DNA of 63,432 bases, filler included. It is 6 parts of 6 records of this genome, joined end to end, with 100 filler letters (N's around TTAATTAATTAA, not from the genome) between each part and the next. Parts side by side here need not be neighbours in the genome. Positions count along the whole stretch, not along the records: positions 55,670 to 63,432 come from SRR2962707_1898; 5 more parts are not named here. The stretch is one strand, 5' to 3'. The stretch's first letter is position 1, and each line of letters opens with the position of its first letter. Position numbers and translations under genes: made by a program. Positions 4,723 to 63,176 of the stretch are shown in pieces. A model generated the notes under the pieces. It searched no databases, was not told the origin of the DNA, and saw nothing but the letters and a program-made list of their open reading frames with translations.

Positions 4723-5880
4723 TTATCCGTTTCGGCCAAGGAAGGCACGCGCCGCATCGACACCGGCCCGGGCATCACAATCGGCCCCGAGCTTTACGAG
4801 AACCTGACCGAGATGATCCAGGTCCGTCAGAATGTCGTCTTCCGTCGCTGCGCCCATGGTACCGATCCGTATCATCTTGCCGCGAAGCTCGTTACGCGCA
4901 CCGGCAATGACGGTGCCGTGATCTTCGTACATCATTCGCACCAGAGCGGTCCCGTCCAGCCCTACGGGGACGTGGAACACACCCACCGTGTTTGATGTCA
5001 TCGGTGCCGTCGGAAATAGCGCAAGGCCGAGCGCTTCCGCCCCTGCCCGCAATGTCGCCGACAATCGTTGGTGGCGGTTCAGGACGTTCTCCAGCCCTTC
5101 CTCATGAATGGCGGTCAGTGCTTCGTGCAACCCGGCGACCAGTGACACGGGCGGCGTAAACGCCGTTTGGCCCTTCTTCGCCGACTCTCTGGCCTTGCGG
5201 AAATCCCAGTAAAAGCGCGCCTGGCCTTTGTCCGCATCGACACGCTTCCAGGCCTTGTCGCTGACGCTGACAACCCCCAGTCCGGGCGGACACATCAGGG
5301 CCTTTTGTGACGCCGATACGAGCACATCGACCCCCCAGTCATCCTGGCGCATCTCGACCCCGCCAAGTCCACTGACGGAATCCACGATCAGGATCGCGTT
5401 GGTTTCCGCGACAACAGCGCCGATCGCTTCAAGATCGGTGACCGCCCCCGACGAACTTTCGTTGTGGATTGCGATGACCGCTGCGAAGTCGTCACCCGCA
5501 AGGCGTTCTTTCACCGCCTCTGCCGACACTGCGTCGCCCCACGCGACCTCGATCTCGACGACACCGTCGCCAACGCCGAGTGCCTCTGCGATGGCTTTGA
5601 ACCGTCCGCCCCATTGTCCGTTGGTCAGGATCAGTATCTTATCGCCGGGCGTGATGGTATTGGCGACCGCTGCCTCCATCACCCCGGTGCCGGAACTGGC
5701 AAAGATCATGACCTCATTCCGGGTGCCCATTACCGGACGCAGCATATCCGTTGTTTCGACCAGCATCCGGGAGAACTCCTGACCCCGGTGGCTGAAAATC
5801 GGCTTGGCTGTCGCTTGCATCACGCGTGCAGGGACCTCGGTCGGCCCCGGCAAGCGAAGCCTGTATACGGACTTAGTCAT
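4723..5880 (-). CDS. Class V PLP aminotransferase (serine-pyruvate/alanine-glyoxylate family)
   Basis: PGPTEVP, SSGTGVMEA, HNESSSG, VDSVSGLG, SQKALMCPPG, IRIGTMG. Confidence 0.9.
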   Translation of the reverse strand: MTKSVYRLRLPGPTEVPARVMQATAKPIFSHRGQEFSRMLVETTDMLRPVMGTRNEVMIFASSGTGVMEAAVANTITPGDKILILTNGQWGGRFKAIAEALGVGDGVVEIEVAWGDAVSAEAVKERLAGDDFAAVIAIHNESSSGAVTDLEAIGAVVAETNAILIVDSVSGLGGVEMRQDDWGVDVLVSASQKALMCPPGLGVVSVSDKAWKRVDADKGQARFYWDFRKARESAKKGQTAFTPPVSLVAGLHEALTAIHEEGLENVLNRHQRLSATLRAGAEALGLALFPTAPMTSNTVGVFHVPVGLDGTALVRMMYEDHGTVIAGARNELRGKMIRIGTMGAATEDDILTDLDHLGQVLVKLGADCDARAGVDAARAFLGRNG

Positions 5881-5920
5881 ATCGTTATTTCCTTAGTCTT
5901 TTTCTGTTTTATCGTTCAGG

Positions 5921-7963
5921 TCATGCAACCGCGGGACGGTCGCGCCACTTTGTCCACTGCGAGATCAGGACCGGCATCGCAAGAGCAAGCCCGATACCGC
6001 CGGACGGTATTCCCGGGGCAAAGAAGAACAGCGACGAGAAGCCGAGCAACCAACGCTGCCATCCCGGCATCGTCGCCACGAGATATCCCGTGAACGCCGA
6101 CCCGATCAGGAACACACCGATGATGCAGCCACTGAACGCAACGATGAATTCCTGCAGCGAGAACCCTTCGACCACGATCAGCAGCGATGGTGCGTACACG
6201 AACACCAGCGGCACCACTGCTTTCGCGTTGCCGAGCTTGAACGCGGTATTCCCCGCCTGGAACGGGTTGGCGCCGGCAATCCCGGCAGCGGCATATGCCG
6301 CCACGGCAACCGGTGGGGTGATATCCGCCAGCACGCCATAGAAGAACACATAGAAGTGCGACACCAGCTGCGGGATACCCAGGATCGCCAGCACCGGCGC
6401 CACCATCGTCACCAGAACGATGTAGGTCGCCGTCGTCGGCAGCCCCGCCCCCATCAGGATACAGGCGACCGCCACAAAGATCAGGGTGATGAACAATGTC
6501 AGCGAATCAACCGTGAACGGGAAGTACGGCAGCATGCCATGAATATTGGAGGCGAGCGTCCCTGCGAAGTCAGTCACGACGAACGAGACTTTGAAGCCCA
6601 TCCCGGAAATCGTGATGATACCGACGATGATGCCGACGGACGCTGCCGCCGCACCGACGGCAAGCGCATACTTGGCGCCCAACTGGAAAGCATCGACCAG
6701 ATCACGCACCGTGAGACGGTTTTTCGGATTGATGAACCCGACGATGATGCACGACGTGATTCCCCAGAACGCCGCCCAATAGGGTGTGAACCCCTTGACG
6801 ATCATGAAGATCAGGATGACCAGCGGGATCAGGATCAACCAGTTTTCCTTGATCAGATTGACGAAGACCGGCAGTTCCTCTTTCGAAAGACCACGCAAGC
6901 CTAGGCGCTTCGCTTCAAGGTGCACCATGACCATGACGGCGAAGAAGTGCAGGAAGGCCGGGACCAGGGCGGCAATCAGAATCGTGCGCAGCGGCACTTC
7001 CAGAAATTCGATCATCAGGAATGCGGCCGCGCCCATGATCGGCGGCGTGATCTGACCGCCGGTCGACGCTGCCGCTTCGACGGCCGCCGCGAAATGCGGC
7101 TTGTAGCCGATCTTTTTCATCGCCGGGATCGTCAACGAACCGGTCGTCACCGTATTGGCGATCGAGGACCCGGACAGCATACCGAACATCGCCGAGGACA
7201 GGACACTGACCTTGGCGGGACCGCCGGAATAACGGCCGGCAGCGCAATACGCGAGATCGATGAACAACTGCCCGAGGCCGATCCGTGTCGCAACGACACC
7301 GAACAGCACGAAGTGGAAAACATACGTCGCGACGACGTGAACCGGCAGACCGAATACGCCTTCCCCGGTCAGATACAGATGGTCGATCAGACCGGACCAG
7401 GTGCTGCCTGGATGCACCAGCGGCCCCGGCGCGTAATTGCCCCAAAGGCCATAGGCAATAAAGATCAGGCAGATGATCGGCAGCGCCACCCCCATGGAGC
7501 GGCGCGTCGTCTCGATCACGGCGGCGATCATGATCGTCCCGATAACGATGTCAATTTGCTCCGGATCGCCGATCCTGAAATTGATTGAGCCGACGATGCC
7601 TTCGATCCCGCCGTACGTTAGAGCGACCCAAAGCGACGCGATGATCGTCAGAATGAAGAACAGCCAGTCGTAGAGCGGCACCCCGCCCTTGCACCACCAG
7701 GCCTCGGTATCCGGGCTGATCGGCTTCCCGGCGTGAAGCGGAAACACGATGAAGATAAGGCCGAGAACGTAAGCCAGATGGACACCCGTGTGCAGGTGAG
7801 CTTCCAGGACGCCAAAACCGGACGTGTAATAGTGGAAAACAGAAAGAGTGAACAGCAGGCCGATCACCAGCCAGCGAACAGGCCCCCAGGTATCGCGGAA
7901 CTGAATTTCCGGATCATACTGCTCTTCCAGTTCACGGGCTTTTTCAAAATCAATCTGGGCCAT
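5921..7963 (-). CDS. TRAP transporter fused 4TM/12TM permease (TAXI type)
   Basis: GGPAKVSV, SGSSIANTVTTG, EAAASTGGQITPPIMGAAAF, GLPTTATY, DITPPVA. Highly hydrophobic. Confidence 0.93.
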   Translation of the reverse strand: MAQIDFEKARELEEQYDPEIQFRDTWGPVRWLVIGLLFTLSVFHYYTSGFGVLEAHLHTGVHLAYVLGLIFIVFPLHAGKPISPDTEAWWCKGGVPLYDWLFFILTIIASLWVALTYGGIEGIVGSINFRIGDPEQIDIVIGTIMIAAVIETTRRSMGVALPIICLIFIAYGLWGNYAPGPLVHPGSTWSGLIDHLYLTGEGVFGLPVHVVATYVFHFVLFGVVATRIGLGQLFIDLAYCAAGRYSGGPAKVSVLSSAMFGMLSGSSIANTVTTGSLTIPAMKKIGYKPHFAAAVEAAASTGGQITPPIMGAAAFLMIEFLEVPLRTILIAALVPAFLHFFAVMVMVHLEAKRLGLRGLSKEELPVFVNLIKENWLILIPLVILIFMIVKGFTPYWAAFWGITSCIIVGFINPKNRLTVRDLVDAFQLGAKYALAVGAAAASVGIIVGIITISGMGFKVSFVVTDFAGTLASNIHGMLPYFPFTVDSLTLFITLIFVAVACILMGAGLPTTATYIVLVTMVAPVLAILGIPQLVSHFYVFFYGVLADITPPVAVAAYAAAGIAGANPFQAGNTAFKLGNAKAVVPLVFVYAPSLLIVVEGFSLQEFIVAFSGCIIGVFLIGSAFTGYLVATMPGWQRWLLGFSSLFFFAPGIPSGGIGLALAMPVLISQWTKWRDRPAVA

Positions 7964-18730: not shown

Positions 18731-18830
18731 NNNNNNNNNNNNNNNNNNNNNNNNNNNNNNNNNNNNNNNNNNNNTTAATTAATTAANNNNNNNNNNNNNN
18801 NNNNNNNNNNNNNNNNNNNNNNNNNNNNNN
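18731..18830. other. Artificial contig spacer
   Basis: N-run, TTAATTAATTAA (stops in all six frames), N-run; 100 nt. Confidence 0.99.
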
Positions 18831-26430: not shown

Positions 26431-26530
26431 NNNNNNNNNNNNNNNNNNNNNNNNNNNNNNNNNNNNNNNNNNNNTTAATTAATTAANNNNNNNNNNNNNN
26501 NNNNNNNNNNNNNNNNNNNNNNNNNNNNNN
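26431..26530. other. Artificial contig spacer
   Basis: N-run with TTAATTAATTAA. Confidence 0.99.
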
Positions 26531-34876: not shown

Positions 34877-34976
34877 NNNNNNNNNNNNNNNNNNNNNNNN
34901 NNNNNNNNNNNNNNNNNNNNTTAATTAATTAANNNNNNNNNNNNNNNNNNNNNNNNNNNNNNNNNNNNNNNNNNNN
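34877..34976. other. Artificial contig spacer
   Basis: N-run with TTAATTAATTAA. Confidence 0.99.
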
Positions 34977-46994: not shown

Positions 46995-47094
46995 NNNNNN
47001 NNNNNNNNNNNNNNNNNNNNNNNNNNNNNNNNNNNNNNTTAATTAATTAANNNNNNNNNNNNNNNNNNNNNNNNNNNNNNNNNNNNNNNNNNNN
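46995..47094. other. Artificial contig spacer
   Basis: N-run with TTAATTAATTAA. Confidence 0.99.
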
Positions 47095-55569: not shown

Positions 55570-55669
55570 NNNNNNNNNNNNNNNNNNNNNNNNNNNNNNN
55601 NNNNNNNNNNNNNTTAATTAATTAANNNNNNNNNNNNNNNNNNNNNNNNNNNNNNNNNNNNNNNNNNNN
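55570..55669. other. Artificial contig spacer
   Basis: N-run with TTAATTAATTAA. Confidence 0.99.
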
Positions 55670-55703
55670 GTTGGTTTATGGTTTGTCGTTTTTAGTTTTC
55701 AGT

Positions 55704-56000
55704 TTTTGATAAACTAAAAATTCAAAAAGTATCAGAATACAAAAATCTATATATCTTGTTTCTTTACTCTTGCTTCCTCCCAACTTCCAACTTTTTACTT
55801 CAGACTATTTCAATCTTTCAACCTTTGAATAAGCAGTAGGCTTTTGATAAAATGCAAATTCGAAAAAGCATAAGAACACAAAAATCTTTACTCTATACTC
55901 TTTATTCTTGTTTCCTTCGAACTTTTTACTTCCGTCTACCGACTTCAGTCTTCCGACTTAAAACTTCAAACTTCAAAACTTACCCTCAACTTTAAACTTT
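55704..56000. repeat. Imperfect ~135-bp duplication containing mixed 7-mer and 8-mer tandem arrays
   Basis: Similar units at 55704-55801 and 55842-55932. Arrays TCTTTAC/TCTATAC/TCTTTAT/TCTTGTT (55885-55912), CTTCCGT/CTACCGA/CTTCAGT/CTTCCGA (55929-55956), AAACTTC repeats. Confidence 0.75.
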
Positions 56001-56102
56001 TTCACCTAATACTCAACAGTTCCAAACAAAACACTTGGCTAATTTGTTACTTGTTAGTATCTTTCAACTTGAAAGTATTGACGAACCTTAAACATTTACA
56101 AA

Positions 56103-58049
56103 ATGTTAGAAGAAAAAGATGATAACCTGCAGCCAGAGGCAGACGGAAGTGAAAAAAATAGCGAGACGCCGCAAATTGACAATCAAGAGAGTGTTACTAC
56201 CGAAGAAACGGTAAGTGAAGTGGAAGTAACTGCTGATGCTGAAGGAGAAAATAATGATGATCCGCAGAATGAAATAGATGAGTCGAATGCGGAAGATGCG
56301 GAAGATGAAGGACACAAAGAGCGTCATGAAATTCCTATGCTAGACTATCATGCCATGAATATGGATACGTTAGTTGAGGAACTCAATATACTTATTACAA
56401 AAGAAAAAATACAGGCTATAAAAAGTCATGTTGACCAAATAAAATCGGAGTTTGATCTAAAATTTCAAGAACTCTTAGAACAGAAAAAAGAAGATTTTAT
56501 CCAAGAGGGAGGCAATGAAATTGACTTTAATTATTCTTCGCCAGTTAAGAAGCGTTTTAACGAACTATATAATGAATATAGAGATAAACGCAATCAATAT
56601 TATAAGAATCTAGAACATCGATTGGATCTAAATCTAAAAAATAGATTAGATATTATTGAGGAATTAAAGGGCTTGATTAATGTTGAAGAAAATATTAACG
56701 ACACTTATAAGCACTTTAAGGAGTTACAAGAACGATGGCGAAATGCTGGCCCGATTCCACGTGTAAATTACAATGATGTTTGGCGCACCTACCACCACCA
56801 TGTGGAGATATTTTACGATTTCTTAGATTTAAATAGAGACCTACGCGATTTAGATTTTAAACATAATTTAGAAGAAAAAGAAAAAATTATTGCTCAGGCA
56901 GAATCTCTTGCCGAGATGGGCGATGTAAACAAGGCATTTAGAGAATTACAGTTGCTTCATAAAATATGGAAAGAAGATTTAGGTCCTGTAGATAGAGAAC
57001 ATCGAGATGCTATTTGGGATCGTTTTAGCGCTGCTACCAAAGCAATACATCAAAAGCGACAAGAATATTTTAAGAATCAAGATGTAATACATGAAGCTAA
57101 TCTTTTAGTAAAACAAGATATTATTAAAAAGATTGAAGCTATTACGCAGCAAAAAGTAAATAACCACAGTAGCTGGCAAAAACTCATAAAAGAAGTAGAA
57201 GCTTTACGAGAAGAGTTTTTTAATGCTGGGAGAGTTCCTTACAAAGTAAATGAACAAACTTGGGCTGCCTTTAAAGAAGCTGTGCGTAAATTCAACAGAA
57301 ATAAAAATTCTTTTTATAAAGGACTTAAAAAAGACCAGCAAGACAATCTAGATAAAAAAATGGAATTGGTAAAATTGGCTGAATCCCTAAAAGACAGTGA
57401 TGAATGGGAAAAAACTACGCCAATAATGAAGAAAATTCAATCTGATTGGAAAAATATCGGTCATGTTCCAAGAAAATATTCTGATAAAATCTGGAATGAA
57501 TTTAAGTCTGCTTGTAACCATTATTTCGATCGACTTCATGCTAAGAAAAACGAGCATTTTAAAGATGAAATGGAAGCTTTCGAACAGAAGAAGGCATATT
57601 TAGATAATTTAAAAGAATTCCAATTATCTGGAGACAAGGAAAAAGACTTAGAGCAAGTAAAAGCTATTATTGCCGACTGGAAGGCTATCGGAAGAATCCC
57701 TCATAGCAAAAAAAGCATTGAAGGAAAATTCAACAAAATATTGGATGCATTATTCAAGAAATTAGACCTCGATAAGCAAAAGGCGGAACTTATAAAATAT
57801 GGGAACAAGCTAGATCAACTGGCAAATGCAGATAATGATACGCTAATTAATAATGAACGTGTATTTATCCGTAGAAAAATTGACGAAGTAAAATCGGAAA
57901 TACGTCAATTGGAGAATAATTTACAGTTCTTTAATGCAGATGAAAGCAATCCTATTGTAAAAGAGGTGATGAATAATATTGATAAACACCATGAAGATTT
58001 AAATTTATGGAAAGCAAAACTCAAAAAGCTTAAAAACATAAATCAATAA
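56103..58049 (+). CDS. DUF349-domain helical-repeat protein (Bacteroidota)
   Basis: Acidic N-terminus and repeated motifs LQERWRNAGPIP, WKEDLGPV, WKNIGHVP, WKAIGRIP. Confidence 0.85.
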   Translation: MLEEKDDNLQPEADGSEKNSETPQIDNQESVTTEETVSEVEVTADAEGENNDDPQNEIDESNAEDAEDEGHKERHEIPMLDYHAMNMDTLVEELNILITKEKIQAIKSHVDQIKSEFDLKFQELLEQKKEDFIQEGGNEIDFNYSSPVKKRFNELYNEYRDKRNQYYKNLEHRLDLNLKNRLDIIEELKGLINVEENINDTYKHFKELQERWRNAGPIPRVNYNDVWRTYHHHVEIFYDFLDLNRDLRDLDFKHNLEEKEKIIAQAESLAEMGDVNKAFRELQLLHKIWKEDLGPVDREHRDAIWDRFSAATKAIHQKRQEYFKNQDVIHEANLLVKQDIIKKIEAITQQKVNNHSSWQKLIKEVEALREEFFNAGRVPYKVNEQTWAAFKEAVRKFNRNKNSFYKGLKKDQQDNLDKKMELVKLAESLKDSDEWEKTTPIMKKIQSDWKNIGHVPRKYSDKIWNEFKSACNHYFDRLHAKKNEHFKDEMEAFEQKKAYLDNLKEFQLSGDKEKDLEQVKAIIADWKAIGRIPHSKKSIEGKFNKILDALFKKLDLDKQKAELIKYGNKLDQLANADNDTLINNERVFIRRKIDEVKSEIRQLENNLQFFNADESNPIVKEVMNNIDKHHEDLNLWKAKLKKLKNINQ

Positions 58050-58256: not shown

Positions 58257-59117
58257 TTATTTCAATATACTCAATAGCCTTTTTCCATAACCGCTTTTCA
58301 TTAACGGCTCAATTAAAGCTATAAATTCTTCTTTTGTAATATAACCCATTTCATAGGCAGCACCTTCTATAGCTCCAATTTTAAGTCCTTGTCGCTCTTC
58401 AATAACTTCTACAAATTGAGAAGCCTGCATTAAAGATTGAAATGTTCCTGTATCCAGCCATGCAGTCCCTCTATCCATAATACCAACCTGTAATTTTCCT
58501 CGCTCAAGATACACTTTATTAATATCGGTAATCTCTAACTCTCCTCTTTTACTTGGCTTGATATTTTTTGCTATTGTCACCACCTCATTGTCATAAAAAT
58601 AAATCCCTGGAACCGCATAATTCGATTTTGGACTTTGTGGCTTCTCCTCAATTGAAATAGCTTGCCCATTTTTATCAAACTCTACTACACCATATCGCTC
58701 TGGATCATGAACATGATATGCATAAACAATTCCGCCATCAGGATTGTTATTTTCTTGTAACAACTTATCTAATCCAGTTCCATAAAATATATTATCTCCT
58801 AAAATCAAAGCTACTTTATCATTTCCAATAAAGTCTGCTCCAATAATAAAAGCTTCTGCCAAACCATTAGGATGTTCTTGTACCGCATATTCAAAAACAC
58901 AACCATACTTTTTACCATCTCCCAGCAATTCTTTAAACAACGGTAAATCTTTTGGAGTAGAAATGATTAATACTTCTCGAATTCCTGCTCGCATTAACGT
59001 AGAAAGCGGATAATAAATCATCGGTTTATCATAAATAGGCATTAACTGCTTACTAACCGATAATGTTAATGGATGTAATCGTGTTCCTGAGCCTCCAGCG
59101 AGAATAATTCCTTTCAT
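58257..59117 (-). CDS. rfbA: Glucose-1-phosphate thymidylyltransferase
   Basis: [55 protein letters not shown]. Confidence 0.97.
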
Positions 59118-59127
59118 TATTTTTATA

Positions 59128-59188
59128 TTGTTATAAAGTTATGCTGTTACAGTGTTACATTTTTTTATTATCATGTTACGGAGTTATG
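59128..59188. repeat. Octamer tandem array (NNGTTAYR) downstream of the four-helix-bundle gene
   Basis: TTGTTATA AAGTTATG CTGTTACA GTGTTACA ... ATGTTACG GAGTTATG. Confidence 0.85.
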
Positions 59189-59537
59189 TTACTATACTTT
59201 TTATAAGTTTTGATAACATTCTTCGAATGTATATAACTTGATTGTTTAAACTTGTTATATCTTCAATGTATTTCAATCTATTTGAGATTTCTATTTGAGT
59301 CTCTAATTCTGACAATGATCCCATCGCAATATGTAAAAAACGCTGAAACTCTTTACCTCCTTTTCTTCCTGCGCCTTCTGATATATTTGAAGGTATTGAA
59401 ATTGCCGCCCTCCTCATCTGACTCGTTAATCCATATTGCTCTCCATTCGGAAAAGTTGTCGTTACACGATAAATATGTTCAACTAAATCCATAGATTCTT
59501 GCCAAACTTTTAAATCTTGATGCGAATTAATTTTCAT
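59184..59537 (-). CDS. Four-helix-bundle protein (23S rRNA IVP/TIGR02436 family, Avd-like fold)
   Basis: HQDLKVWQESMDL, FPNGEQYGLTSQMRRAAISIPSNISEGAGR, FLHIAMGSLSELETQ. Confidence 0.93.
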   Translation of the reverse strand: MKINSHQDLKVWQESMDLVEHIYRVTTTFPNGEQYGLTSQMRRAAISIPSNISEGAGRKGGKEFQRFLHIAMGSLSELETQIEISNRLKYIEDITSLNNQVIYIRRMLSKLIKSIVT

Positions 59538-59542
59538 TATCA

Positions 59543-59732
59543 CTGTTATTATATGGTTGTTCTGTTACATGGCTATTTTGTTATGTAGTTATGATGTTAC
59601 CTAGTTACACTACTATCAAATCAAGTTGTGCTGTTCACTGCTACAAATAATCACAATGTAATAATTATAGTCCTAAAAACTTCATAACTACATAACAGCG
59701 TGACTTCGTAACCATCTAGAGCTACATAGCTA
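59543..59732. repeat. Two oppositely oriented octamer arrays forming a long imperfect inverted repeat upstream of the four-helix-bundle gene
   Basis: NNGTTAYN array at 59554-59609 and NRTAACNN array at 59683-59732. Perfect 16-bp inverted repeat: 59579-59594 with 59682-59697. Confidence 0.85.
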
Positions 59733-60824
59733 ACACCCATATTGCTTATCATAATACCTCTGATATTCTCCAGAGGTTACTTGCGCCAACCAGTCACTAT
59801 TATTTAAATACCAATCGATAGTTTTTGCTAATCCTTCTTCAAAAGTAACCGAAGGCTCCCACCCCAGTTCTTTGTTAACTTTAGAAGCATCAATAGCATA
59901 ACGTAAGTCATGCCCTGGTCGGTCTTTTACATAGGTAATCAATGCTTCCGATTCGCCTTCCCTTCTGCCTAACTTTTCATCCATCAATTTACATAGCAAT
60001 TTAACCAAATCGATGTTTTTCCATTCGTTAAAACCTCCAATATTATAAGTCTCCTGATTTCCTCCTTCATGAAAAGCTAAATCAATAGCCCTTGCATGAT
60101 CTATTACATACAACCAATCGCGCGTATAATTTCCATCTCCATAAACTGGTAATGGTTTTTTCTGAATGATATTATTGATAAATAATGGAATTAATTTCTC
60201 CGGAAAGTGATTAGGCCCATAATTATTAGAACAATTACTTATAACATACGGCAAACCATAAGTTTCTCCATAAGCTCTTACAAAATGATCTGAGCTTGCT
60301 TTTGAAGCGGAATAGGGCGAGTTTGGATCGTATGAAGTGGTTTCGGTAAACAGCCCATCTTCTCCTAAAGACCCATAAACCTCATCGGTACTTACATGAT
60401 AAAAACGAGCCTCCTCCCAGCCTCCCCCATTGGGGTGAGGAGTGTGTGACCAAAGTTTTTTTGCCGCATTTAACAAATTCATTGTCCCGATAACATTTGT
60501 CTTCACAAAAGCCAACGGATCTTCAATAGAACGGTCTACGTGACTTTCTGCCGCCAGGTGTATTACTCCATCGAATTTATATTGCTGAAATAACTGATTT
60601 ATAAACGACTCATCTGTAATGTCTCCTTTTACAAAAGTATAATTAGAAGCATTCTCTATGTCCTTCAGGTTCTCTAAATTCCCTGCATAGGTTAAAGCAT
60701 CCAAATTAATGATTTGATAGAATGGGTATTTATTTACAAACAACCGAACCACATGAGAGCCTATAAATCCTGCTCCTCCAGTTATTAAGATTTTTTTATT
60801 TTTATTATCAGAACTATTATTCAT
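59730..60824 (-). CDS. rfbB: dTDP-glucose 4,6-dehydratase
   Basis: ILITGGAGFIGS, LDALTYAGN, HLAAESHVDRSI, STDEVYG, PYSASKA, DRPGHDLRYA. Confidence 0.97.
   Translation of the reverse strand: MNNSSDNKNKKILITGGAGFIGSHVVRLFVNKYPFYQIINLDALTYAGNLENLKDIENASNYTFVKGDITDESFINQLFQQYKFDGVIHLAAESHVDRSIEDPLAFVKTNVIGTMNLLNAAKKLWSHTPHPNGGGWEEARFYHVSTDEVYGSLGEDGLFTETTSYDPNSPYSASKASSDHFVRAYGETYGLPYVISNCSNNYGPNHFPEKLIPLFINNIIQKKPLPVYGDGNYTRDWLYVIDHARAIDLAFHEGGNQETYNIGGFNEWKNIDLVKLLCKLMDEKLGRREGESEALITYVKDRPGHDLRYAIDASKVNKELGWEPSVTFEEGLAKTIDWYLNNSDWLAQVTSGEYQRYYDKQYGC
60408..60443. repeat. GC-rich REP-like palindromic element lying in frame inside rfbB
   Basis: AGCCTCCTCCCAGCCTCCCCCATTGGGGTGAGGAGT with hairpin CCTCCCCC-ATT-GGGGTGAGG in an otherwise AT-rich gene. 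It falls within the peptide HTPHPNGGGWEEA. Confidence 0.6.
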
Positions 60825-60904: not shown

Positions 60905-62170
60905 TTACAATCTCTCTGTAACCAATTCTTTAGGTAAAAAACTTTTCACATCATAAATAACCGTTCGCGGACTAGATTTTAACTTTTCAAAATCCAATTC
61001 TAAAAACTGATTATGACCAACTGCCAAAACAATAGTTTCGTATCTCTCTGTTATTTCATCTATTAAATCTACTCCATAATACTTTTTCACTTCCTCTTTA
61101 TCTGCATATGGGTCGTAAGTATCTACATTCAAACCAAAGCCTTCTAATTCTTCAATAACATCTATCACTCTAGAATTTCTAACATCGGGGCAATTCTCTT
61201 TAAAGGTAATTCCCAACACCAACGCCTTTGCATTTTTTACTGGAAGCTGATCTTTCACCATCAGTTTAACGATTTTATTGGCAATAAAAATCCCCATATC
61301 GTTATTAATACGTCGTCCAGATAAAATTACCTGTGGATGGTATCCTAATCGTTCTGCTTTATGAGTTAGATAATATGGATCCACTCCTATACAATGCCCT
61401 CCTACCAAACCTGGACGGAAAGGTAAAAAATTCCATTTAGTGCCTGCCGCTTCCAATACCTCAACGGTATCTACTCCTATTCTATCAAAAATAAGTGCCA
61501 ATTCGTTCACTAAGGAAATATTAATATCTCGTTGCGTATTTTCAATAATCTTAGAAGCTTCTGCCACTTTTATACTCGATGCTTTATGAGTTCCTGCGGT
61601 AATTATACAGTTATAAAGTTTATCCACCTCTTCAGCTATCTCGGGAGTACTTCCTGAGGTTACTTTCATAATATTTGGAAGTCTTCGCTCTTTATCCCCT
61701 GGATTTATTCGTTCTGGGGAATATCCACAATAAAAATCTTCATTAAATACTAATCCGCTTGAAGCTTCTAATACTGGCACACAATCTTCCTCAGTACAGC
61801 CAGGGTATGTTGTAGATTCGTACACTACAATATCTCCTCTCTGAAGATATTTCCCTACAGTTGTACTAGCAGAAATTAATGGTGTTAAATCTGGCTGTTT
61901 AAAATCGTTTACTGGTGTTGGAACCGTTACTATATACATATTGCAATCTTTAAGATCGCTTTCATCAGAGCTAAAAATAAGTCCTTTAGCGTCTTTTAAA
62001 TCATCATCTAAAACCTCATCTGTAACATCTTTTCCTTCTTTTAATTCTGAAACTCTCTTTTTATTGATATCAAAACCTATTACCGAAAATTCTTTTCTAG
62101 CAAATTCAACTGCCAATGGTAACCCTACGTATCCTAAACCTATTACGGCTATTTTATATTTTTCTTTCAT
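60905..62170 (-). CDS. Nucleotide-sugar dehydrogenase (UDP-GlcNAc/GalNAc 6-dehydrogenase, TviB/WbpO-like)
   Basis: IAVIGLGYVGLPLA, YESTTYPG, SPERINPGD, GGHCIGVDPYYL, FKENCPDVRNS. Confidence 0.93.
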   Translation of the reverse strand: MKEKYKIAVIGLGYVGLPLAVEFARKEFSVIGFDINKKRVSELKEGKDVTDEVLDDDLKDAKGLIFSSDESDLKDCNMYIVTVPTPVNDFKQPDLTPLISASTTVGKYLQRGDIVVYESTTYPGCTEEDCVPVLEASSGLVFNEDFYCGYSPERINPGDKERRLPNIMKVTSGSTPEIAEEVDKLYNCIITAGTHKASSIKVAEASKIIENTQRDINISLVNELALIFDRIGVDTVEVLEAAGTKWNFLPFRPGLVGGHCIGVDPYYLTHKAERLGYHPQVILSGRRINNDMGIFIANKIVKLMVKDQLPVKNAKALVLGITFKENCPDVRNSRVIDVIEELEGFGLNVDTYDPYADKEEVKKYYGVDLIDEITERYETIVLAVGHNQFLELDFEKLKSSPRTVIYDVKSFLPKELVTERL

Positions 62171-62434
62171 GTGTATATTTATTGTTTTTTTGCGGTCACA
62201 TGGAACATCCAAAATAATCATTCCGTTGTGTGTTCAAAAATCATACATGGATGTTTCACCTTTATTTAATTTTATTATTTATCATTTAAAAATTGAGTTC
62301 CTATATCTTGCCCCCAATTTTTAACAACTCACAAAATAATATATCTTTTTATCATATACGAAGCGTTTGTAAAAATAGGCTTTCTTATTAAGAAACTTTA
62401 ACCTTCTCCATGAGAAACTCCTAATTGTAGCAAC

Positions 62435-62649: not shown

Positions 62650-62953
62650 TTATATTTCTTTACTTAGTTTATTTGGGTCTCGCCTCGAGTCAAATATTGT
62701 AATAATATTAATCTGCTTTGAATTATAGCGATAATATAAAGTCGTTTGTTTTGTAATTACGCACTTCTTTAATCCTTTACCTTTTTTTGATTCTGGAAAT
62801 ATTTCAGGCTGTTTTTTTAATTACTTTTATTGATGAATCTAACTTCTTAACAAATTCGGTTTTAACCTTAACAGACCATTCTGTTATTAAATACTCTAAA
62901 AGTTTATCTAATTTCTTCTCGGCAGTTTTTGAAACAACAACTTTCCTGCTCAA
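62650..62953 (-). pseudogene. RelE/ParE-family toxin with a +1 frameshift in an A7 run
   Basis: TTG start 1 nt after the antitoxin stop. SKTAEKKLDKLLEYLITEWS continues, after removing one A at 62812-62818, as QPEIFPES...CVITKQTTLYYR...ITIFDSRRDP. The span is 304 nt (3n+1). Confidence 0.82.
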
Positions 62954-62954
62954 T

Positions 62955-63176
62955 TTATCTATGTTTCTGTATAAAAGTATCGTAATCCGTTACTTCTTCA
63001 TTTTCTATTTCAAGAGAAGCTTCTTCTATTTCTTTACGTTGCTCAATAGATAAATCATCCCAGAAGTCGGATGCTTCTTCTTTTTTAAATATTTTTTTAA
63101 TGGATTCAATTATTTTTGGATTTTCGGTGTCCAATAGCATTTTAACCAGCTCTATTTTCTCTGCTTGAATATTCAT
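62955..63176 (-). CDS. Putative antitoxin (addiction-module component)
   Basis: 73-aa acidic protein with KIELVKMLL and DFWDDLS..QRKEIE, directly upstream of the RelE/ParE gene. Confidence 0.78.
   Translation of the reverse strand: MNIQAEKIELVKMLLDTENPKIIESIKKIFKKEEASDFWDDLSIEQRKEIEEASLEIENEEVTDYDTFIQKHR

Follow-up and report, generated by a model that had tools for sequence, protein, structure and literature searches.

The closest described relatives of the element reported here are the intervening sequences (IVSs) of 23S rRNA. The Coxiella IVS is an element of 428 nt with an open reading frame (ORF) of the PF05635 family inside it; this ORF is preceded by two or three tandem GACAGAT heptamers, the number of which varies between strains, and RNase III cuts the IVS at the stem that contains the heptamers (PMC4990558). 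The authors view the Coxiella ORF as untranslated and decaying, and they cite ORF-bearing 23S IVSs also for Leptospira and others, as well as a homopentamer for the PF05635 family (PMC4990558). PF05635 and TIGR02436 go by the names '23S rRNA intervening sequence protein' and four helix bundle protein, and together they describe a very large family with two crystal structures and no known function. Here, we describe a PF05635 gene that lies, together with tandem arrays of short repeats, between rfbB and rfbA on contig SRR2962707_1898, the last part of a stretch of DNA of 63,432 nt (hereafter the window). We find that the gene and its arrays form a cassette of the IVS type outside rRNA, that this cassette is widespread across bacterial phyla and mostly vertically inherited, and that it is not specific to rfb genes because it occurs in many unrelated operons.

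Short inverted or tandem repeats are also familiar from other settings. REP-associated tyrosine transposases (RAYTs) are HUH transposases, and the repetitive extragenic palindromes (REPs) are single palindromic units. Correia/Neisseria miniature insertion sequence (NEMIS) and enterobacterial repetitive intergenic consensus (ERIC) elements are small inverted-repeat elements of operons, and RNases cleave the hairpins that they form in RNA, which changes how stable the neighboring cistrons are. The heptamers of Calothrix and Anabaena are known as 'STRR'. Heptameric repeats are over-represented in bacteria, where they have been read as G-quadruplex formers; Nostoc heptamers are GGGGA(C/T)T, and in Xanthomonas campestris 186 GGGAATC arrays with 70 convergent pairs are present, most of them located between co-oriented genes (PMC4692102). 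One convergent GGGAATC pair is listed between groES and groEL, and one array overlaps the start of XCC0516, the gene of structure 2GSC, which is listed as 'conserved' only (PMC4692102). Finally, Avd forms a pentamer with positive charge and binds a stem-loop in the RNA of diversity-generating retroelements (DGRs) (bioRxiv 10.1101/2023.10.23.563531).

Along the window's minus strand, the order at the junction is rfbB, array A, array B, the PF05635 gene, array C, and rfbA (table 1). The pattern GTTA-N4-GTTA-N4-GTTA, with one mismatch allowed, has 11 matches in the window versus 0.05 expected, a number reached by none of 100 shuffles, and no GTTA/TAAC array was found outside A, B, and C in the whole stretch. 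The end of array B is 17 nt from the ATG of the PF05635 gene, and tandem short repeats upstream of the ORF, as in the IVS, are thus present. Array C overlaps the stop codon of this gene, and its last base is 10 nt ahead of the rfbA ATG; these boundaries, the start of array A on the rfbB stop codon, and the position of the gene agree with the preliminary description of the junction. Arrays A and B are complementary at 19 of 20 positions, a match that includes the perfect 16-bp inverted repeat reported there. The second pairing that had been reported, between A and C (59706-59691 against 59151-59136), was recovered as well, with 14 of 16 pairs including two G-U pairs, and a longer match between these arrays extends over 26 nt at 77%.

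Table 1. Coordinates of the cassette, its neighboring genes, and the linkers, counted along the window
Feature	Position	Strand	Remarks
Array A, G-type (GTTA every 8 nt, mRNA sense)	59683-59732	-	3 pattern matches, on the minus strand; starts on the rfbB TAG stop codon (59732-59730)
A-B loop, 73 nt	59610-59682	-	Apical portion of the A:B hairpin (minimum-free-energy fold); without Rfam match
Array B, C-type (TAAC every 8 nt), directly upstream of the PF05635 gene	59554-59609	-	4 pattern matches, on the plus strand
PF05635 gene, 117 amino acids	59184-59537	-	ATG at 59537, stop codon at 59184-59186
Array C, C-type (TAAC every 8 nt)	59128-59188	-	4 pattern matches, on the plus strand; Tandem Repeats Finder period 8 at 59118-59169
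rfbB/rmlB-type dTDP-glucose 4,6-dehydratase gene, upstream host gene	59730-60824	-	PF16363, 341.9 bits
rfbA/rmlA-type glucose-1-phosphate thymidylyltransferase gene, downstream host gene	58257-59117	-	ATG at 59117; PF00483, 256.5 bits
UDP-glucose/GDP-mannose-dehydrogenase-family gene	60905-62221	-	ORF and Pfam
DUF349 gene	56103-58049		
Linkers between contigs	18731-18830, 26431-26530, 34877-34976, 46995-47094, 55570-55669		

The encoded protein matches PF05635 with 132.9 bits (cut-off 33.8), TIGR02436 with 132.8 bits (cut-off 24), and NF008911 with 142.7 bits (cut-off 137). Its sequence matches 2gsc_A (XCC0516) with E = 2.8e-31, and its predicted model, with a predicted local distance difference test score (pLDDT) of 94, has four helices arranged as an up-down four-helix bundle. 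Template modeling (TM) scores of the model are 0.91 to 2GSC (XCC0516), 0.82 to 2RLD (BT_0352), and 0.76-0.83 to Avd, which bears out the earlier statement of a fold in common with Avd, and PHROG 3206 ('Avd protein of DGR') matches the protein at E = 5e-6. The PDB entries 2GSC and 2RLD contain five chains of one sequence each, and the cassette protein is probably pentameric. A Pfam scan found no domain other than PF05635 in the protein, which has no recognizable catalytic motif, and PADLOC returned no defense-family match. The protein is basic (pI 9.3; median of 9.0 across relatives), 36 of its 117 columns are invariant among 20 relatives, and dN/dS values of 0.04-0.12 in orthologous pairs indicate purifying selection. 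The family comprises at least 5,248 clusters of 90% identity at E <= 0.001, and a protein 99% identical to that of the window sits on a 132,545-nt contig of another source.

A profile built from the 20 relatives gave at least 601 confirmed places in species-representative genomes, the best 80 of which were taken with 5-kb flanks (loci L001 onward). These loci span Bacteroidota, several classes of Proteobacteria, Acidobacteriota, Nitrospirota, Gemmatimonadota, Ignavibacteriota, candidate-phyla bacteria, and others. Intact genes were located in 78 of the 80 loci and in the window (the ORF filter missed L017 and L049, and extra copies were added later), and 336-372 other ORFs of the same loci served as controls. 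Typically, a tandem array stands just before the start codon, and the reverse-complement array begins on the stop codon or only a few bases from it. Within the gene-proximal 80 nt the best autocorrelation lag is 7 or 8 for 58 of 77 upstream and 60 of 77 downstream flanks, compared with 84 and 83 of 352 control flanks. Counting period-7/8 arrays of at least three copies gives 80 in the 39.75 kb next to the genes, or 2.0 per kb, and 84 in the remaining 664 kb of the same loci, or 0.127 per kb. The arrays are thus about 16 times denser beside the genes rather than equally frequent elsewhere, the outcome that the preliminary description had named as contrary to its proposal.

The two arms of a cassette are complementary to each other far more often than control flanks are. 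When the 200-nt upstream flank was scanned against the 130-nt downstream flank, an ungapped 20-nt window with at least 16 Watson-Crick pairs was found for 53/77 genes and 24/336 controls, and one with at least 17 pairs for 42/77 and 10/336, respectively. As a pairing partner of the upstream arm, the downstream arm of the same gene beats every GC-matched arm from unrelated loci in 25 of 78 loci and is among the best 10% in 43 of 78 (Wilcoxon p = 3e-11); with longer flanks, it beats all 14 sampled non-cognates in 32 of 75. The arms also have a fixed polarity: in sense-strand flanks of 60 nt, a G-rich/C-poor 5' side is combined with a C-rich/G-poor 3' side in 41 of 80 loci and the reverse in none of them, whereas both combinations occur in 20 of 372 controls. 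Five orthologous Flavobacterium cassettes share a 19-bp terminal stem that encloses the ORF and includes four doubly changed pairs; paired cells make up 88% of it versus 25-58% in slid controls, and its covariation score is 0.163 versus 0.083, with 12 of 500 shuffles as high. Covariation from five sequences lends modest support to the terminal stem. RNAalifold run on five sdhA-sdhB cassettes yields a long-range helix of only 7 bp because the arrays do not align. Two further measures were set aside. Counts of 6-mers shared between flanks place 5 of 77 genes above the control 95th percentile and are not discriminating, and they were therefore replaced by the autocorrelation, cognate-arm, and window-pairing measures. 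An automatic classifier of G/C-type architecture was too noisy (it left 19 of 76 genes without arrays and mislabeled the window) and is excluded from all counts.

The architecture is retained over very different unit sequences. Units are GTTA/TAAC in the window, L001, L002, L003, L024, and L034, GTGAGGA/CTCCTCA in L013, GTGAAAC/GTTTCAC in L012, GGATTTG/CAAATCC in L064, GGTGACA/TGTCACC in L015, GGTTCAAAG in five Flavobacterium loci, and GGGCGGC in L077, and an array has 4 to about 15 of them. Two cyanobacterial plasmid copies, from Calothrix and Nostoc, show the same array-ORF-array layout with GGGTGTA and GGGAGTA heptamers. With periodicity, inversion, and complementarity conserved across phyla, the earlier proposal that gene and arrays are one cassette resembling a 23S IVS is upheld.

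The cassettes split canonical operon partners. Both neighbors are co-oriented with the gene in 55 of 70 loci (272 of 450 control triplets), and the arrays occupy essentially all of the median gaps of 67 and 46 nt to these neighbors. Based on Pfam scans of 67 upstream and 22 downstream neighbors, the junctions are rfbB-rfbA (the window and L002), pgi-ugd (L001), gmd-epimerase (L006 and L079, and L013 with gmd upstream), dnaK-dnaJ (L012), thyA-folA (L064), ahcY-metF (L015), sdhA-sdhB (L007, L031, L054, L065, and L070), ABC-2 permease-ATPase (L014, L025, and L028), rimP-nusA (L061), nuoC-nuoD (L040), ilvN-ilvC (L035), and leuA-leuB (L037). Nucleotide-sugar or polysaccharide genes account for 13 of the 67 upstream neighbors; in addition, rfbB lies upstream of the cassette in L032, and the L071 cassette lies inside an rfb cluster. 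Because the sampling favors relatives of the window protein, we read no function into these sugar genes, and the suggestion that the cassette tunes the dTDP-rhamnose genes is not supported, given that the same cassette stands at dnaK-dnaJ, sdhA-sdhB, rimP-nusA, and other junctions. A sigma-70 promoter and terminator scan, which does not cover Bacteroidota promoters, found no terminator-like site in the cassette and no enrichment of promoter-like sites.

Several lines of evidence bear on inheritance. Among Flavobacteriales and Cytophagales, the sdhA-sdhB copies are most closely related to one another (59-82% identity), as expected from long vertical retention. At gmd-fcl, three phyla have unrelated copies (45-51% identity), and the nearest relative of the window protein, L001 (68% identity), is at a different junction, pgi-ugd; thus, movement of the cassette occurs, but rarely. 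Copies within genomes are old paralogs rather than the products of recent bursts, and their positions are conserved across genera. Homologs occur in 37 of 72,556 plasmid records, mostly cyanobacterial megaplasmids, and the family is not typically plasmid-borne. Two or three gene copies are found within a few kilobases in L010 (592-964 and 2474-2837), L037 (2160-2520 and 4994-5354), L062 (three places), and L079 (545-955 and 4436-4805). Features of integron cassettes were not seen, as the genes are solitary within housekeeping operons and the contig encodes no integrase.

Like the 23S IVS, the cassettes have the same protein family inside, variable-copy tandem repeats just upstream of the ORF in the predicted stem region (heptamers in Coxiella, octamers in the window), probable co-transcription with the host gene, and apparently no promoter of their own; as a class (53/77 genes), although less clearly in the window copy, they also have terminal inverted repeats that would pair into a stem around the ORF. 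They differ in that the host is a protein-coding operon (rfbB-rfbA in the window) and not rRNA helix 25 or 45, in that a cut in an mRNA has other consequences than a cut in rRNA, and in that each arm is an entire tandem array, the two having a fixed polarity, G-rich 5' and C-rich 3'; the window copy further adds a third array and a local hairpin. The likeness to Avd lies in the four-helix-bundle fold, the basic charge, and the weak profile match, and Avd binds an RNA stem-loop next to the transcript of its own gene, where distal RNA flanks pair (bioRxiv 10.1101/2023.10.23.563531). However, sequence identity to Avd is 8%, the cassette contig has no reverse transcriptase (RT) and no template or variable repeat, and the literature considered here does not report heptad arrays flanking Avd genes. 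The cassette arms resemble the described heptamer arrays in being intergenic tandem 7-nt units, mostly between co-oriented genes and often in convergent pairs, whose length varies between relatives, and G-rich units flank the gene in L029, L056, L064, L071, and the Nostoc and Calothrix copies. Most cassette units (TAAC, GTGAAA, GGTTCAAAG), in contrast, cannot form quadruplexes, and the main text of the heptamer survey draws no link to the PF05635 family, with 0 occurrences of 'S23' or 'intervening' (PMC4692102). A full-text literature search, whose reach ended short of subscription journals and curated family descriptions, found no publication stating the association of PF05635 genes with arrays; what it yielded was the remark on Coxiella heptamers and the survey of Xanthomonas and Nostoc repeats. 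Correia/NEMIS and ERIC elements are likewise small inverted-repeat elements inside operon transcripts, but they lack an ORF, occur in many nearly identical copies per genome, and do not consist of tandem 7-8-nt units.

The window copy differs from the common form. Most loci consist of a G-arm, the ORF, and a C-arm, whereas in the window, L001, L007, and L008 a C-type array stands at the start codon and a G-type array farther upstream, with a local hairpin. The A/B/C order that had been expected at homologs therefore recurs, but only in these few loci. The proteins of the window, L001, and L007 are close relatives that occupy three junctions and have different unit sequences and yet keep a common A-B-ORF-C layout, and for this reason the layout seems to be inherited with the cassette. 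L002, from Sediminicola, sits at the same rfbB-rfbA junction as the window copy and has the simple form; its RfbB and RfbA are 54% and 77% identical to those of the window. Mirror-image forms with an extra downstream array are found in L009, L014, L027, and L046.

Folding predictions for the window cassette favor A:B pairing. The A:B duplex has a predicted energy of -25.2 kcal/mol (RNAduplex), and 2.4% of 695 other contig windows pair equally well with A. In the minimum-free-energy fold of the cassette transcript, the A:B hairpin is present and A:C is absent, and the 206-nt upstream part folds with -50.2 kcal/mol (z = -2.18; 4 of 200 shuffles as good). When B is blocked, at a cost of ~16 kcal/mol, A pairs with C instead, over 14 positions. 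The predicted dominant structure is thus the local A:B hairpin in the window cassette, which we regard as a clade-specific three-array variant in which C would be left single-stranded ahead of rfbA. The mutually exclusive pairings of the preliminary description find weak support: A:C forms only if B is blocked, and A:B wins by ~16 kcal/mol. A:C is physically possible and, taken by itself, within chance.

It had also been suggested that repeat type tracks protein clade. In a partial Mantel comparison of array 4-mers with protein identity, controlled for GC content, r is 0.15 over all pairs, with 0 of 2000 permutations as high, but it falls to 0.04, with 279 of 2000 permutations as high, when same-context or same-locus pairs (52 of 3,081) are dropped. 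The motif-clade trend is present only above 55% protein identity, and the suggestion does not hold across contexts.

Inverted heptad or octad hairpins without an ORF are also found near the cassettes, in L015 (6233-6309), L061 (1837-1947), L077 (8990-9216), L042 (1241-1323), L004 (8172-8355), and L053, and in many cases their unit is that of the cassette located a few hundred bases from them. In L071, an ORF-less GGGGAGT/ACTCCCA element with a loop of ~100 nt (5979-6138) lies in frame and stop-free within rfbD (ORF 5342-6412), where it divides the RmlD domain match in two; this is a single case on a contig of a metagenome-assembled genome. At 5340-5380 of the same locus, the stop codon of the cassette gene overlaps the rfbD start codon (ATGA), and the C-type array (four copies of ACTCCCC) encodes the first ten or so predicted RmlD residues. 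Judging from this overlap, the L071 cassette seems to have supplied the start of the downstream gene. A GC-rich insert suspected to lie in frame within rfbB of the window was rejected, as no inverted repeat is present there and the protein aligns without gaps to that of L002.

Based on these comparisons we propose, with about an even chance of being right, that the element is an operon-embedded cassette of the IVS type whose arms pair in the transcript, where RNase III would process the duplex and the encoded protein would bind the stem. In an operon transcript the arms may form a long imperfect duplex, so that the cassette would be looped out or folded into a hairpin and the neighboring genes would be brought together. 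The arm duplex would be a substrate for RNase III, which processes double-stranded RNA, and the protein may bind the arm stem, as its structural relative Avd binds RNA. The tandem build of the arms would let pairing tolerate register shifts, and slippage could renew it. As a speculation, the fixed polarity could stem from an advantage of transcribing the C-poor arm first, which would keep a C-rich, G-poor stretch from ever standing unpaired in front of the ORF.

A number of observations weigh against this proposal. Our sample consists of the best matches to a profile of Flavobacteriia relatives and is not a random draw from the family, and the controls are crude longest-ORF calls. No 16/20 complementary window is present for 24 of the 77 genes, and at least one neighbor is not co-oriented with the gene in 15 of 70 loci; in addition, the copy on a Nostoc edaphicum plasmid (L082, 1100-1600), which has seven upstream GGGAGTA units and five complementary ones downstream, is found between nrdB and nrdA in antisense orientation. 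The sense arms are more stable than the antisense arms in 39 loci and less stable in 38, without G-U strand asymmetry, and therefore pairing at the RNA level and at the DNA level are not distinguishable by this measure. The Coxiella ORF is decaying and seems to be untranslated, in contrast to the cassette ORF with its strong purifying selection. In the window, the whole 641-nt cassette folds with z = -1.46 (2 of 20 shuffles as good). The A:C duplex has -21.2 kcal/mol, a value equaled or bettered by 11% of 695 other contig windows, 9 of 14 non-cognate arms match or exceed its stability, and its best 20-nt window has 16/20 pairs, a level reached by 24/336 control genes (7%).

The main competing explanation, which we consider rather unlikely, is a system acting in trans, similar to REPs and their hairpin-forming inverted pairs (REPINs) with RAYTs, in which the protein maintains or binds all heptad arrays of the genome as DNA (hairpins, or cruciforms at replication) or as RNA. 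The arrays would flank the gene because gene and arrays are members of one element family. As in REPIN-RAYT systems, the gene is flanked by inverted short repeats that, in the related loci, also occur as gene-less hairpin pairs, and inheritance is mostly vertical. The ORF-less hairpins of L015, L061, L071, L077, L042, L004, and L053 include units that resemble the nearby cassette: the mean best identity is 0.69, versus 0.55 for GC-matched other loci (p = 6e-7), and 21 of 62 reach at least 0.85. Period 7 (n = 65) is far commoner than period 6 (n = 10) or 9 (n = 7) among arrays away from the PF05635 genes, the GGGAATC array at the XCC0516 start fits the same picture (PMC4692102), and the G-rich 5'/C-rich 3' polarity, which reads identically from either DNA strand, also fits a reading at the DNA level. 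Against such a system stands a protein without a recognizable catalytic domain, for which PF05635 is the sole match, PADLOC gives nothing, and features of a HUH or tyrosine transposase are absent. Unlike REPs, the arms are tandem arrays, and units differ between cassettes of one genome, as in L010, with two cassettes 2 kb apart, and L037, where the repeat unit differs between the copies of each locus. Across contexts, array motif and protein clade do not go together (r = 0.04), and copies within a genome are old paralogs at conserved positions.

Close relatives at different junctions (the window and L001 at 68%; L014 and L025 at wzm-wzt and L058 at ugd-epimerase at 64-68%) would also be expected of a DNA element of the miniature inverted-repeat transposable element (MITE) or insertion sequence (IS) type, in which the arrays are ends for an unlinked transposase, the ORF is cargo or an accessory, and the rfbB-rfbA copy is a neutral insertion. 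The gmd-fcl junction holds unrelated copies in three phyla, the three-array layout travels with the window/L001/L007 clade over three junctions, and many family members are on very short contigs, as repeats are. We nevertheless judge such an element unlikely, since the contig has no transposase, no target-site duplication was seen (without an empty-site comparison), units that differ between copies provide no common end sequence, purifying selection and vertical sdhA-sdhB retention are unlike a neutral parasite, and plasmid homologs are few. A locus-specific RNA switch, in which the protein binds single-stranded B and C, competes with A:B pairing, and sets translation of its own gene and of rfbA, would account for a conserved 7-8-nt period without conserved sequence, for a basic protein whose solved relatives have five chains, for the re-pairing of A with C at 14 positions once B is blocked, and for the A-B-ORF-C layout kept in L001 and L007 with other units. 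This layout is in the minority, however, and one-sided hairpins of at least 15/16 pairs (upstream 4/75 versus 4/163 controls; downstream 2/75) are not enriched over controls; with many unrelated operons as hosts, A:C at chance level, and unit numbers of 4 to about 15, a switch of this kind is quite improbable. The low GC content of the contig, the A:C match that alone is within chance, and the joining of contigs in the window might suggest chance AT-rich low-complexity sequence or an assembly artifact, an explanation that we count as refuted by the excess of pattern matches, the same architecture in independent assemblies from many phyla, the 99%-identical protein in another source, and the excess of arm pairing over controls.

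It is possible, although less likely than not, that PF05635 proteins, the excess of heptameric repeats, and ORF-bearing 23S IVSs are one phylum-spanning, operon-embedded, vertically kept system, in which inverted arrays would fold the host transcript and a pentameric protein would act in cis and possibly, on ORF-less hairpins, genome-wide in trans. A large family of 'function unknown' would then gain a nucleic-acid target that can be read from the flanks of its genes. The sampled genes nearly always come with a complementary array pair of fixed polarity, which gives a predicted nucleic-acid partner for each copy, and the flanks tie the family to the RNase III-processed rRNA IVS and to the RNA-binding Avd. 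They may also explain heptameric arrays hitherto read as quadruplex formers. For annotation, the arrays break assemblies, split operons, and, as L071 suggests, can supply start codons and N-terminal residues downstream.

The window consists of six contigs joined by N44-TTAATTAATTAA-N44 linkers, and for this reason the usable context of the cassette is 7.8 kb. The cassette contig (55670-63432; 7,763 nt) has 33% GC, compared with 50-60% in the remaining five, and probably derives from another organism, either through bin contamination or because the set is mixed. Its ORFs are the DUF349 gene, rfbA, the cassette gene, rfbB, the UDP-glucose-dehydrogenase-type gene, and ParE-like fragments. In agreement with the preliminary description, no transposase or RT, and also no integrase, is among the ORFs of this contig, and it has no template/variable repeats, so that the adjacent RT and repeats of a DGR are lacking. 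No Rfam family (best E = 0.15) and no rRNA match was found on it.

The contig starts within short periodic repeats (55670-56020) with units near GTTTTTA, TCTTTAC, and ACTTCAAA, which have no inverted partner on the contig, and upstream of the DUF349 gene a direct repeat of roughly 138 nt is present in two copies. At this end, a further repeat element may be where the assembly broke off. On the minus strand near the other end (62653-62950 and 62955-63176), a 73-amino-acid ORF is followed by a ParE/RelE-like toxin gene that is split in two frames at an A-run; the first piece has a weak PF05016 match below the cut-off (E = 0.0033), and the split reflects either a disrupted toxin-antitoxin pair or an error in sequencing.

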